From contig JYFJ02000886.1 in NCBI GenBank assembly GCA_000934665.2, forward strand, positions 1 through 64,000: a DNA stretch of 64,000 bases. The letters run 5' to 3'. The position numbers were made by a program, and so were the translations under genes. The notes under the pieces were generated by a model. The model ran no database searches, was not told the origin of the DNA, and saw only the letters and a program-made list of their open reading frames with translations. Below, in pieces: positions 1 through 37,500 of this stretch. This DNA comes from Catajapyx aquilonaris (taxonomy: Eukaryota). The first letter of the stretch is position 1. The number at the start of each line of letters is the position of its first letter.

Positions 1-821
1 GGGGGGCGCCGAGGTCCTGTACATTATTCGCTCGAATATGCACCTTCTTCGCGGAGGAGAGACAGAAAAGAGGATGATTTTGAATGGCCTTGCGCATATG
101 GCGCGCAGTTATGATTTTTTTTTTTGGAAAGTAAGTAGTCAAGCAAAAGAAATTACATTTTAAACTATCAATGGTTCCAACATTTTCGCGGCGGGCTATG
201 GCCAAAATTTTGATTTTAATTTTGATGACAATACCAAATTTGAGTCACGCATTGTTAGCGAACCGCAATTTTAATGGGATTTAAAATCTGCATCTTACAA
301 CCATCCCTTGAGAGACGCATTCTCTGTTAACCCCTTCATGGGAGATTGCCCCTAAATGCGCAGTTAATAACAATGAATTTTGATACAAAAAAACACTACA
401 GTTCAGTTCGCTTTTGTGTAGCAAATATTGGGCTATAGTTTTGGGGAAACCACCCTTGACCTTGTCAAAAGATAGGTCATAATTTAGCAGTCTCGTATTG
501 TGATTATTTTGCAATAGGCGAAAACTAAGGACACGGGCAAAATTTGCTGGCTAATTTTTGCCACTAGTTCTGTTTTTCATGGCCTCCAAGTCGTAAATCC
601 TCACAGTTCCAGTACAATGCCGTAGATGGGAGGGATGGGGCGGGGGGGGNGGGGGGGGGGGGGGGGGGCGAAAGGATAATTTAAAATATTCAATCACATC
701 ATTATTTTGAAGATATCAAATATATCCTACGCGACAAATCTTAATTAATCTCAATTAAATTTTTCAGGTGTCTTCAGAGTTTTCCTCTTGAACAAAAACT
801 CACAATAAAAGACTATACTAA

Positions 822-14949: not shown

Positions 14950-15231
14950 AGGCGGCATGGTGGTCTAGTGATTACGCCGCTGGCCAGCCAAGCGGGAGGC
15001 CGGGGTTCAAATCCCGTCACCGTCACCTCTGCTTGGCCGGGATCCTTTTCCGCTTTTCACCCGACATGCCGAAGCAGAATTGCACTCCCTTCTCTGCTCG
15101 GGGCCAGGAGAAAAGGTCTGGTGTTAAAGAATGTCAGAAATGGCTATCGCACGGCGCCCTCCCTTGGGAACTTCCCCTTCCCTCCGAAGAGGGCCACGAG
15201 CTCTATCACGGGGTAACAAAAACAACAAAAA
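14950..15231 (+). mobile_element. tRNA-derived SINE, family B (tRNA-Gly(GCC)-like head), with 16-bp TSD
   Basis: A box TGGTCTAGTG and B box GGTTCAAATCC. GCCAGCCAAGCGGGAGGCCGGGGTTC resembles eukaryotic tRNA-Gly. Tail ATCACGGGGTAACAAAA. TSD AACTTGATTATTTCCA at 14934-14949 and 15232-15247. Confidence 0.9.
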
Positions 15232-32389: not shown

Positions 32390-34136
32390 GCGATATAAGC
32401 AGAACGATGTCAGTCACAGGCTCTTGGTGCAGTGTAGCGCCATGTAGTGGTGGAAAAAATAGGAGCAAAATTTCTCCAGAAGACCGCATTTCTCCTTTTT
32501 TTTACCAAGCAAAACTCCTGCGTCCCCAGCTTCTTTCCTCGCCCCCATATTTCAAGCTCTAAAGCGTTACTTCTCTGCAAGTCTCAGCAAGTGTCGCTCT
32601 AATTCATTCGAAACCTGTTGTATAACCCATATATCATGCGCCCTAAAGTGAGAGCTTCGTCTCTTCTTGTCTCAAGTCTAGCTATTAACTTAAGAAAAAT
32701 AATGCCGGCAAGTCCTTCACCCTATGAATAGAATGTCCTCTTCCTGCATTTTCTCTATTTTGGAGGCGCACTGAGTGCCCAAGTTAGCAAGCTGTGCGAC
32801 TTTTCCGTTTTTCATGAATATTGTATATCTGACAATGCTCACAGAATACGAAATTAATTGCACTTTAATAAGTCTTCGCCTACAGTTTCTCGCAGGCGTG
32901 TCCTGGAACACATCGTGAGAGACAAAATTATGCAAATATTATCATATAAAACACCAACATTGTCAGACATTTTCTGTATTAATATAATGTGCATACTGTA
33001 TCTCACTTGAGCGGTGACTGCAGTTAATAAAAGGTTACAATTACACACAATTTTATTGGTTTTTATGTGAGATTTCGCGCTCATAATTGTAACATAGGTA
33101 TGCTATAAACAGAAGAATATTACGATACCTACGATACCAACCCATTTTATTAATATCAAGTTTTTGTTACTGAAAATATATTATAAGACATTTTATTATT
33201 AGCAAGTAATGCAAAGCAGCAGCTTTGCTCTGGTGATGTCATTACCCTTGGCTGATGTCTTATAAGATAAAGGCTATGCCTTAATAATACCGACAAATGT
33301 CTGGGGTAAACTCCTGCGAGAGAAAGGATCACCCTAATTATGTAGGGATGTAATTTATCCTAAGCCTGCTCGTTACTGGGATAATTGGCAATTTATCATG
33401 TAAAAGCGTATCCTAGAAGATCTGCATCCAACCTCATGTGAAGCTCGCATAAAAAGTATGCATTCTCTCTATAGTTGTGCATTTTCAACTTCGTGATTGA
33501 AAGACATTTTCAGTGTATGTGGTATGCTTTATAATGGAGCGTTTCAGTGATGGTTACACAATAATTGCATGCATTGTTGCGTACACTGTTGCTGGACTCC
33601 ATTTACATGAGAACACATCGCCAAGTCTACTTGTGACAAAATATGCATACCGTAGTCCACAAACTCTACGGTCTTGAAAGCTCTTGAAAGCAATGGTTGG
33701 AAAACAACTTCTAAAAAATAAGCAGCTTATAATGTAAAAAGATCTCTAACTGAAACACTCCCCCATTGCCACCAAACATTGATATGCCAAGTACTCACCC
33801 GCGAAACAATTCCACTCACTGCATGTAAATCCAAGCTAATAGTTTCCCATTCCTAAAATTATTATTATGTCCCCTCAACCACCACCGTCCAAATTAATTA
33901 ACCTCATTTTTCATCATAATTAATTCAGTGTTGCCAAGAGAATTCAACTCTACGTGGCAACGGGTAACCAGGCGACTTGGTTTTTGGTTGTCATCCTGGT
34001 TGTGTATGATACTGCCAGCAAGAATCACCCCGACTACCCAATGTAAACACTTATCACATTTCCAATTGTGTTGATGCGATGTAGAAGGGAACAAAATTCG
34101 CTCCACGTATTCCCCGTCCTTTCATCCATCCTGCAG

Positions 34137-34186
34137 TCTTGGGTTCTTGGGATTAGAAGGAACTCATACATTCGCATACCTTCAAT
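34137..34186 (+). other. Candidate 50-nt upstream exon of the CaaX-protein gene
   Basis: Preceded by a pyrimidine tract CCCCGTCCTTTCATCCATCCTGCAG and followed by donor GTGAGT. Stop-free in the frame of the downstream CDS (LGFLGLEGTHTFAYLQ). Confidence 0.5.
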
Positions 34187-34250
34187 GTGAGTGCTGGTAG
34201 TTACGACCCCCAACATCACTTCGGACCTAAACTATTCCTTCTCACACCAG
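34187..34250 (+). other. Candidate 64-nt GT-AG intron
   Basis: GTGAGT donor, branch-like CCTAAAC, pyrimidine tract TTCCTTCTCACACCAG. Confidence 0.6.
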
Positions 34251-34258
34251 CCCACACC

Positions 34259-34552
34259 ATGGAGCAGCAGATCCCGCCACTGCCGCGGCGTGGTCCCGAA
34301 GGACAAGCTCAAGACAATGCGGAAAGCAACAGCAACGGTCCGACCAGGCAGAGTCTTCAAGGACCAATTAGACGACCAGGGGGCATTCACACAATACCAC
34401 CGAACCAGTATGGACACGACAGCACAGGACAACCCGAAATGTACCATGGAGGGCCCTCAGCCGGTGATTACATTGTCGTCCAACAAGTCACCATTGTAGA
34501 TGAGGTGGGAAGCACTGCAGTGATTTGTTGTCCTCTGTGCACAATAATGTAA
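34259..34552 (+). CDS. Small Pro/Gly/Gln-rich protein (97 aa from this ATG) with PxxPxR motif and C-terminal CaaX prenylation box (CCPLCTIM*); may be the last exon of a longer protein
   Basis: Strong Kozak context CACCATGG 8 nt after a splice acceptor. Translation MEQQIPPLPRRGPEGQ...DYIVVQQVTIVDEVGSTAVICCPLCTIM-stop. Composition is disorder-like, unlike the other short ORFs. Confidence 0.7.
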   Translation: MEQQIPPLPRRGPEGQAQDNAESNSNGPTRQSLQGPIRRPGGIHTIPPNQYGHDSTGQPEMYHGGPSAGDYIVVQQVTIVDEVGSTAVICCPLCTIM

Positions 34553-37500
34553 ACCTTTGGCTGTCAAGGCAAAATTTTATGTGAGATAAAAATCATTAAG
34601 ACCAAAATGTATTTCATTTCATATTGTTTCACTTCAAATCAGGTAGAGGGAAACTTTAGGTAGAAATTACAGTCCGCCAGTTCAGACCATATCACTTTTG
34701 GATCTGTCCCTGTGGTCTGTGGTGGGAAAAAAGCAAAAAAGGACTGAATAAGGAGGGCGATAAATGAATACTTGTATACCAGGAAAATTTGCATACGAAT
34801 ATTGTGTGGGTGTTTGAATTTGGCTCAATTAAATTAAATTAATATAAATATGGCTAACGTTTGACCGGATCCGGATAATTTTTTCCAGAGTCTTAACCTA
34901 GGAGAGTGGGGTTGGCTAAAAAACGGATTTAGGACTGTTCGTAGAACATACCCTGAGGCTGGCCTGTAAAGTGACTCAGGCCATGGTTTAACCTCGTTTT
35001 AGCAATTAACCCTCGCATCACTACCCAGGGTTATGGTAATGGGTTCCCAGTCATAATAATCACTTTTTTGACAATAGGGCGACGGAAAAATCTTATCTTT
35101 TGCTCAGCTCAGCCTCGTTTCCTCAACTGCTCACGCCGCCGGGCCACGTAAAAAACACAGCTAGTTCTCACACTCGAGTGTAAGAGCACTTAGATGTTAA
35201 GTGATACCTCATTATGAAGGACCATTCCCCATATAATAATCGCCTTATTTTTTTCTTCCCTCTGTCTGGAACGGTCCGGTGGGTGGGGCGGAGGGAGGTA
35301 GGGGTCTTGGTGAGTGCTGCCACCTTCTGGTCACTCCACTAAATCATCAGGCCGGGGGGAAGGGTGGCTGGGTAGGTGGCCGGCGGGGGGTCTGCAGGTT
35401 TTGCTAAATTTTGGCTACGGGTGCACTAGTAGAATACACTTTAAAACTTCAGCAATATTTCCAATGAACTCGTGGTATCCTTGATACATCAGTCTTCTTC
35501 GGCTACCTCCCCATAAACTCCGAGAAAGTTACATCCAAAACCTTTTTGTGTACCAAAACCTGTTCAATTAACTTCTTAAGTATAATTATGTAGTAAGATG
35601 TTTATATTCTGTGGCCTAGTGCATATACCTGTGGTGTATCTGTATACCGCCTGGACGAGCGGACTATACCTTTTTCAGTAAAAATATATTGAACAGGGGC
35701 AGCTCTGCGGCTATACAGTGGATTCCAACTGCAGGTCGGAAAGGCAAGAAGGGATTGGCATCTGGAGGAGGCAGGCATGCAAATGGCAGGAGACGGTGAT
35801 AAATTTGACTAATAAATCCCAAGCCTAAGCGTGTTCGCCTTTCTCCTGAAAATTCTATTAAAACCATTGGAACTTGGTTTTTGGTGATCACTGGGAGGTA
35901 AGGAGGGATGCATGACTGGAATGGCGGATAAGAAGTCAAGAAAATAGAGAAGCTAAGAAGGAAGCAAGATGTATGTTCCTTGGAGACCCATTTGGCGGCA
36001 GACACGTGGCAAAGCGATGCGGAATAAAGAGGTCCCCTGTCCTCAAAAAGGTGCAAGACGGGCTTAATACCTCTTTAAAAGAATATATCTCATACCAGCA
36101 GCTGCAAACGTCTAAACACCGCCATATCGTATTCTACGTTAGCGTATTTTTAATGGCTACTTTTCAAAAAGCTGCTATAAAAGACCAAAATGTGTTGGCA
36201 ACATTAAATCCTTCATTACGATATTTCTAATCCTGCAGCTCATACAATTTGTTGAAGTAATTGTTAAAAACCTATTATATTTCAGAATACATTTATGGCG
36301 AACTCACTTGAGGTGTGTGCAAGAAAATTCCTGCCTCTGTATAACTTGTCACAATCTATCTAATTTCTCAAAACTTGAGGCAGTCTTTAGGAGTCTGCTA
36401 TCTGTTTCAAGAGATAAGGAAATTAAGTGACTAATGCGTTTAGTTTCTGAGGCCATTGAAGATAATGTATTGTATGCGTTATTTCATAACTTGGGTGACT
36501 CGATAAAATGTACTAGTATTTTCAAATGACAAATAATTATTAAATAATGCATACATTGTTAACTTAAAGTCGGAATATAGATTGTAGGGTCATAACATGG
36601 GGTCATGGAACATGGCACTGTAAACCGATAATCTCATTCCGTTACCTCCCGAGTGGGTCAAAACTAGATCGTGGTAAATCCATTAGATGGAACTGTAGTA
36701 CCTGCTTCCGGCTATAGAAAACTCGATCGAACACTTCAAAAGAAGTAGGCTATATAGACTCCCGAAGTATTCTACAAGGAGAATAGAAATCTCTCCAGTA
36801 ATTATTCACGAATGTTTGACCTGAGAAGTCTGTCCGCTAGTCAGGCAGAATTTTTGGGTCTCTCCTAATTTGGGTCTCATTAGTGCCAATAAGGATCGCA
36901 CCGTCCCCTTTTCTTGTTTGGTTTGAACCAGCTAATGAATGAGTGACCATGTCGGCCAAGGCTTCATTTAGGGTGATTCTATTTCTCTCTAGTTCCAGAG
37001 CCTACGGGCAAGCTTGGGAGGCTTCACATCCGTTTCACTTGTGCCAGGCAAATGACGTCACAGAGACAACACTCAACCAGGAGAGTCTGCATTCAGGGTA
37101 CCTCAAAAAAATAGGTAGAAACTACAGTACATTTTATTTTTGCTTAGAATGATTGTAAGCGAGGTTACGATAGGTCGACTTTAGGCGGTGCTATGCTATG
37201 ACATGGTCCTCAAAAGATCGGCTTTCGAATCTAACGTGGAGTGAGGATTGTCTCCCGTTCTCTCGATCGTTATTATTCCGCATCCTTCTCATGTCCTATA
37301 CCGGAGGTATTTCACCCTCTCCCATGACGTTATACAGAGAGCTTTTCTCTCCCAGAGGGATAAAAAAGACACACTCAATAAATTGGCTCTAAAAGCTTCT
37401 CCATACTGTCAAATAATTGGCCTCCACTAACTCCAACACTGTAGGATATATTGTTATTCTGAAAAGTAATTTTTTGACACATTATCAGGAGTTTCCGCGT

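Follow-up and report, generated by a model that had tools for sequence, protein, structure and literature searches.

A putative lineage-restricted pair of genes for small, CaaX-ended disordered proteins in Catajapyx aquilonaris

A 97-codon frame on a Catajapyx aquilonaris contig raises two linked questions: whether it belongs to a gene at all, and, if so, whether its product is the membrane-tethered SH3 adaptor that an earlier note had proposed from the DNA letters. The window, meaning the whole 64,000-nt stretch that was analysed, spans the opening 64 kb of contig JYFJ02000886.1, which is 103 kb long, in a genome of 286 Mb.

The coding frame, its paralog and the conserved motifs

The frame described in the earlier note, 97 codons ending CCPLCTIM-stop, is read directly at its place, with the start in a CACC-ATG-G context at 34259 and a TAA stop at 34550-34552.

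34259-34552, plus strand: coding sequence for a 97-residue protein (P0001), frame read directly, dN/dS 0.24 over codons 16-70

A paralog at G000:C4901:270-620, on the minus strand, matches it with E 1.5e-11 and 54% identity, has 116 residues and ends CPFRCTIL. Start codon, stop position and CaaX box (CTIL) are all retained in it, as is the putative short GT-AG intron upstream, and the homologous block between the copies extends over about 1 kb (33682-34686). Protein, DNA and pattern searches of the genome for further paralogs, with the top candidates scored, returned the same two loci only. Three of five matches to a 14-nt pattern and one of three matches to the tail pattern (on C4200) were dropped on inspection as paralogs, and an E 1.17 match on C396 was dropped as the antisense strand of another gene, which we take to be glucosamine-6-phosphate synthase. 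Judged by sequence comparison, the gene is one of two old, lineage-restricted paralogs.

The ratio over codons 16-70 combines dN 0.18 with dS 0.75 (Nei-Gojobori, two paralogs; Fisher p 1.2e-4) and comes from a protein-guided alignment of two sequences, with no branch assignment. Substitutions between the two copies in these codons fall 7/9/22 at codon positions 1/2/3. Across the ungapped codons 33-70, the true frame yields dN/dS 0.21 with zero stops; the ratio is 1.2-3.3 in four control frames and 0.36 in the in-register antisense frame, which contains stops. Indels between the copies, among them a 21-nt repeat expansion in the paralog, are in frame and leave the reading frame open. Such ratios mark the shared core of the frame as under purifying selection, and the 97-codon frame is very probably a real gene. 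The expanded 21-nt unit occurs about three times in the paralog (C4901, about 466-528, minus strand), directly before the first of two conserved motifs.

P0001 is acidic (pI 5.1), lysine-free and without an N-terminal hydrophobic stretch, and P, G, Q and S make up 41% of its residues, in line with the composition given in the earlier note. The predicted structure reaches pLDDT 51.8 and pTM 0.13, with no helix or strand of reportable length; it agrees with the earlier picture of a disordered chain lacking a recognised folded domain, although low model confidence is expected anyway because the alignment held two sequences only. Comparison of the copies sorts the chain into constrained and unconstrained parts.

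34355-34408, plus strand: conserved motif 1, residues 33-50, 16 of 18 identical, with four synonymous and two non-synonymous changes
34433-34468, plus strand: conserved motif 2, residues 59-70, holding Tyr62, 12 of 12 identical, with six synonymous and zero non-synonymous changes
34274-34291, plus strand: PPLPRR, class II SH3 pattern, residues 6-11, absent from the paralog

The signalling-adaptor reading holds that PPLPRR binds an SH3 protein of the Grb2/Drk type and that the tyrosines act as phospho-docking sites. The letters are there, PPLPRR at residues 6-11 and tyrosines at 51, 62 and 71; the hexamer conforms to the class II SH3 ligand consensus, lies in a predicted disordered region, and its stricter form, P-x-[LVIP]-P-x-R, turns up in just 1.0% of 20,000 shuffled versions of P0001. 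A class I or II pattern, however, arises in 8.9% of the same shuffles, and the motif sits in the most diverged N-terminal stretch: residues 4-15 differ between the copies, as does the linker at 71-90, and PPLPRR is aligned with RQLAVT in the paralog. Only one of the three tyrosines, Tyr62, is kept there, Tyr51 and Tyr71 being absent, and P0001 contains no Y-x-N motif. The SH3-adaptor reading is thus unsupported, since PPLPRR and two of the three tyrosines are missing from the paralog, and we regard it as unlikely. The features singled out earlier divide in the conservation check, made with the paralog as single homolog and accompanied by dN/dS: the CaaX box and one Cys-Pro are kept, while PPLPRR is absent. 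The hexamer is better described as a fair SH3 look-alike situated where the pair appears least constrained; with two copies and no outgroup, a gain here and a loss in the paralog look the same, and a copy-specific role is possible.

The C-terminal tail, its lipid anchor and known families

The tail carries three features.

34538-34552, plus strand: CaaX box CTIM with stop (CTIL with stop in the paralog), from codon comparison of the copies
34526-34534, plus strand: Cys90-Cys91-Pro92, candidate palmitoylation site, of which the paralog keeps one Cys-Pro
34549-34642, plus strand: possible 94-nt intron splitting the last codon, else 3' UTR; 110 nt in the paralog

A C-terminal CaaX box with an upstream cysteine, as previously claimed, is well borne out by the paralog. 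The codons for C, T and I differ by three synonymous changes, the X residue changes conservatively between Met and Leu, and the stop keeps its position, the box region alone (eight codons) giving p 0.07. The unspliced endings CTIM and CTIL have a cysteine four residues from the C-terminus, an aliphatic a2 and a permissive X. By a permissive pattern of the analyst's own, CaaX-like ends occur in 35 of 8,383 stop-terminated segments of at least 4 aa in the 103-kb contig (0.4%), and set against this background the ending of the frame exceeds chance. Prenylation of P0001 is accordingly rated as likely.

The X-residue rule, by which Met as X favours farnesyl whereas Leu or Phe favours geranylgeranyl (PMC9141697), would make Cys94 farnesylated (X = Met) and the paralog geranylgeranylated (X = Leu or Phe). 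In a yeast reporter, human GGTase-I fully modified CTIL and also took some CxIM boxes (PMC10541624). The farnesyl/geranylgeranyl contrast is soft, since CxIM boxes are taken by GGTase-I and CTIM, like CTIF, is absent from the main text of that paper. By CaaX biochemistry, the last three residues would be clipped off and the new end methylated.

Palmitoylation of Cys90/91 would most likely provide the second membrane signal, because P0001 has no lysine and its last 20 residues carry a net charge of -2, with no polybasic patch. The tails of H-Ras and N-Ras combine a CaaX box with palmitoylated cysteines as second signal, and P0001 shares with them the terminal C-a-a-X, one or more cysteines 3-4 residues upstream and the lack of a polybasic patch. 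Its Cys-Pro stands three or four residues before the box, four in the paralog. P0001 differs from these proteins in having neither a GTPase nor any other folded domain, and there is no sequence homology.

The stop itself overlaps a potential donor, AT-GTAAAC at 34547-34554, and 94 nt further on a pyrimidine tract leads to a pair of AGs spaced by 4 nt; donor, tract and double AG are arranged alike in the paralog. A phase-2 GTAA donor left unspliced reads as one codon plus a stop, and one LITAF gene of the genome shows this pattern. Use of the second AG (34646) would carry the frame past the box in both copies, by 3 and 10 residues, so that the main product would be a soluble or differently anchored protein without a CaaX box, or splicing would act as a switch. 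This alternative is quite unlikely. The first AG (CAG-G here) adjoins the tract and gives CTIM-stop in this copy and CTIF-stop in the paralog, so the box and its stop are restored in both; the extensions from the second AG are unequal in length, and C-T-I is held through synonymous changes. A prenylated tail, spliced or unspliced, remains the preferred reading.

Searches for relatives outside the genome gave no homolog. Pfam at E 10 returned zero families for both proteins and both tails, CYSTM and LITAF profiles included, and so places P0001 in no known family; the earlier note had recognised no folded domain. A search of 5.8 billion proteins yielded one candidate with P0001 and, with the pair alignment, 269 candidates near its length and 1,690 longer ones, none of them a homolog. 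There were zero matches for a single-sequence phmmer query against 1.84 billion representatives, zero of five sequences found by exact look-up, zero of 152 metagenome contig stretches confirmed as relatives, and two PDB matches (E 0.85-0.96), neither a homolog. ESM Atlas gave top scores of 0.78 and 0.76 for P0001 and no usable match for the paralog (P0002). The protein collections searched may cover arthropods thinly, and in the literature texts accessible on CaaX together with orphan or lineage-specific genes and arthropods nothing concerned this gene. The lack of homologs is unsurprising by itself: many genes are orphans, and short ones that evolve fast often merely escape homolog detection (PMC7660931).

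One family with a similar outline, the LITAF/CDIP1 group (PF10601), was considered as a possible origin. LITAF is defined by two cysteine pairs flanking a hydrophobic helix (PMC5142333); P0001 resembles it in a Pro-rich disordered arm before a membrane anchor and, in this copy, one CPxC. A truncated derivative would have kept the arm and the first CPxC knuckle while the second cysteine became the CaaX cysteine. Residues 73-94 weakly match the first knuckle of a genomic LITAF gene, without gaps and at 8 of 22 positions (single-pair E 0.028), 9 of 35 are identical with another genomic LITAF gene (E 0.048), and a profile built from three LITAF exons of the genome gives P0001 5.2 bits, which 7 of 2,000 shuffles and 5 of 2,130 decoy frames equal or exceed. 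The comparison was picked after the match had been seen, however, and with a shorter profile the score falls to 1.6 bits, a level that 134 of 2,000 shuffles attain. For the paralog the two profiles give -0.7 and 0.8, and it does not keep the CxxC, its spacing being CxxxC. P0001 lacks the second cysteine pair and the 22-residue hydrophobic helix, neither protein contains PPxY or P(S/T)AP, the best tblastn E to a LITAF exon is 1.3, and the seven LITAF matches in the genome are all on other contigs. Descent from LITAF is rated as quite unlikely. The genome has at least three LITAF-domain genes (G000:C946, C2947 and C2483), and there are indications that C2483 carries two copies.

CYSTM/CYSPD proteins (PF12734) are likewise shorter than 150 aa, with a non-globular Pro/Gln-rich N-terminus and C-terminal cysteines (PMC2804304), and yeast members are palmitoylated (PMC10840359). 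They differ in carrying a 35-40 aa C-terminal module, whose profile neither protein matches at E 10, whereas P0001 and its paralog have only 2-3 cysteines and a CaaX end, a term that does not appear in the available text of PMC10840359. The best 19-residue hydropathy is 1.57 in this copy and 0.32 in the paralog, which has no hydrophobic segment. A separate CYSTM gene in the genome was matched by none of nine candidates, in a search whose controls were silent too. CYSRT1/C9orf169 (DUF2477, PF10631), the second-ranked ESM Atlas match at 0.76, is also small with a cysteine-rich tail; the Atlas score nevertheless lies within the range of shuffled proteins, Pfam gives no match, and the paralog has no usable Atlas match.

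The upstream exons and the conserved block

The 5' side bears on whether this copy is intact and whether the frame begins at its own start codon. Five features were recorded there.

34137-34186, plus strand: non-coding exon, shortened to 30 nt should the conserved AG at 34156 serve as acceptor, with a 4-nt indel against the paralog
34187-34250, plus strand: putative 64-nt 5' UTR intron, GTGAGT and AG kept in both copies
34043-34136, plus strand: possibly one more 5' UTR intron, from a GTAAAC donor to an acceptor at 34136 or 34156
33692-34042, plus strand: conserved non-coding upstream block, presumed promoter or 5' UTR, 49 mismatches in 340 aligned columns
33964-33976, plus strand: X-box (RFX site)-like 13-mer, identical in both copies, inside a 20-nt identical run

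One alternative treats this copy as a recent pseudogene, the selection signal being historical or contributed by the paralog. With only two sequences to compare, a pairwise dN/dS does not say on which branch selection acted: one lineage alone may have been constrained, and if this copy had lost its function recently the ratio would not show it. The window, moreover, contains no recognisable neighbour gene. The frame, the start context and the splice signals are intact, however, and the upstream block is strongly conserved, and we consider a pseudogene decidedly improbable.

The setting itself is sparse. Pfam matched none of the 290 window frames of at least 62 aa, one of 137 frames in the rest of the contig and none of 115 frames on the paralog contig C4901. 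In the genome as a whole the arthropod cuticle chitin-binding family PF00379 has 51 matches, as fits an arthropod. The gene may lie in a gene-poor stretch or inside a long intron of some gene whose exons are short. Beyond the block 33682-34686, the contigs of the two copies have in common only apparent repeats. One such stretch, 14951-15209 of the window, is 77% identical to G000:C4901:2398-2666, recurs at C354:76286-76449 and is probably a dispersed repeat. Many short inverted-repeat elements occur across the window (1-64000). Two further observations concern C354: a THAP domain match on the plus strand at G000:C354:68353-68583 (E 1.7e-12), possibly a P-element-like transposase or a THAP gene, and a 102-codon open frame on the minus strand at G000:C354:94308-94613 that ends in three cysteines and a leucine and has no Pfam match.

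The splice arrangement given in the earlier note is confirmed in its letters, with AG at 34135-34136, 50 nt to 34186, GTGAGT at 34187 and an AG ending at 34250 (64 nt). The acceptor at 34136 fares less well: the paralog has no matching AG there, but it does match the AG at 34155-34156. The 50-nt exon is open in frame, as stated there, and is Met-free. Because the copies differ in it by a 4-nt indel and the spliced frame of the paralog carries a stop in the homologous exon, the exon reads as untranslated, that is, as 5' UTR on the comparison of the copies.

These results largely exclude the earlier suggestion that the frame is the tail of a longer protein, which would make it a last exon. With the 34043 donor, about 40 more open codons including a hydrophobic run could precede the open 50-nt exon. 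That extension is nevertheless Met-free and runs into a stop, a frameshift breaks it in the paralog, the start codon at 34259 is conserved, and homology between the copies ends near 33682. No upstream in-frame Met was found within the conserved block in the models tested; 51 donor-acceptor pairings reaching up to 20 kb upstream produced a few Met-bearing open stretches, none backed by homology, and the 1,690 candidates of a weak search included no homolog of greater length. A last exon is very unlikely, and the 97-codon protein starting at 34259 is retained.

The paralog's counterpart of the 5' UTR intron is 56 nt long (G000:C4901:628-683, minus strand), and the interiors differ by 5 mismatches in 56 columns. 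At 56-64 nt it is short against three control introns of the genome, a tiny sample (n=3) of 72, 109 and 112 nt with donors GTAATC, GTAAGT and GTTTGT. Its interior is far more conserved than the preceding exon or the synonymous sites. In both introns the 5' end could base-pair with the region of the branch and pyrimidines, at a level not above shuffles. A mirtron-type hairpin was not found in the intron, which offers about 12 pairs (z -1.03 and -0.20 against shuffles), and no pair of the fold had changed on both sides. The 34043 donor letters are identical in the paralog, with a more diverged interior (27 of 103 columns); its GTAAAC could equally, we presume, be a forkhead-type site.

Within the coding core, 18 of 38 synonymous sites have changed; the upstream block and the intron lie lower, each with p below 1e-4. 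Indels of the block against the paralog include 1- and 4-nt events, and two copies of it were found. Rfam gave no match for block or intron, and their folds are weak. Tight upstream conservation points to regulatory constraint, though part of the contrast could stem from gene conversion or from a higher mutation rate at CpG sites of the coding sequence. Because the upstream DNA is so tightly conserved, expression that is regulated and probably tissue-restricted is suggested.

The X-box-like 13-mer has one mismatch to the RTNRCC-N1-3-RGYAAC consensus of PMC2375033; when the 577 nt upstream were shuffled 3,000 times, a relaxed pattern, chosen after the site had been seen, turned up in 0.6% of the shuffles. 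According to PMC2375033, an X-box of degenerate form has no predictive value, and the site offers a weak guess, as a lead toward expression in ciliated neurons or sperm. Elsewhere, two exact matches to the strict X-box consensus stand about 317 nt apart and mutually inverted at G000:C354:95859-95871 and 96176-96188, and may be the arms of a repeat.

The overall reading and its meaning

Taken together, the sequence comparisons give somewhat better than even support to a lineage-restricted, 97-residue cytosolic disordered protein that is prenylated and probably palmitoylated, serving as a membrane tether that displays two motifs. Residues 33-50 and 59-70 would be held at the cytosolic membrane face on a variable linker, where, on the architecture of the chain, they would recruit one or two partner proteins rather than act as an SH3 adaptor. 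By analogy, P0001 would work like a Ras-type lipid tail with linear motifs, while being a member of none of the tested families.

Extremely unlikely is a fungal a-factor-like precursor of an exported prenylated peptide, in which cleavage before the box frees a paralog-specific short lipopeptide: small size, the CaaX end, a divergent sequence just before the box and the possibility that a fly type I prenyl protease processes a germ-cell attractant (PMC3362292) speak for it, but the most conserved part, residues 33-70, would be thrown away, no common processing motif lies near the box, and the upstream Cys-Pro suggests stable anchoring. The yeast a-factor precursor is likewise small, unstructured and CaaX-ended (PMC3362292), whereas P0001 is longer, has its conserved core far from the box and gives no indication of N-terminal cleavage or export. 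The bolder version, likewise extremely unlikely, makes the paralogs animal a-factor counterparts that differ in lipid and pre-box sequence, with a 4-nt acceptor choice able to switch the anchor off; if true, the pair would define a class of candidates, open to testing, for the prenylated attractant that has been proposed in flies.

On the preferred membrane-tether reading, the paralog marks the 30 residues that matter, for tests aimed away from the SH3 look-alike. The pair would matter more if its products are ciliary or sperm membrane proteins, or precursors of lipopeptide signals. As it stands, the pair would enlarge the prenylated proteome of an arthropod by a family of two proteins not recognised before.
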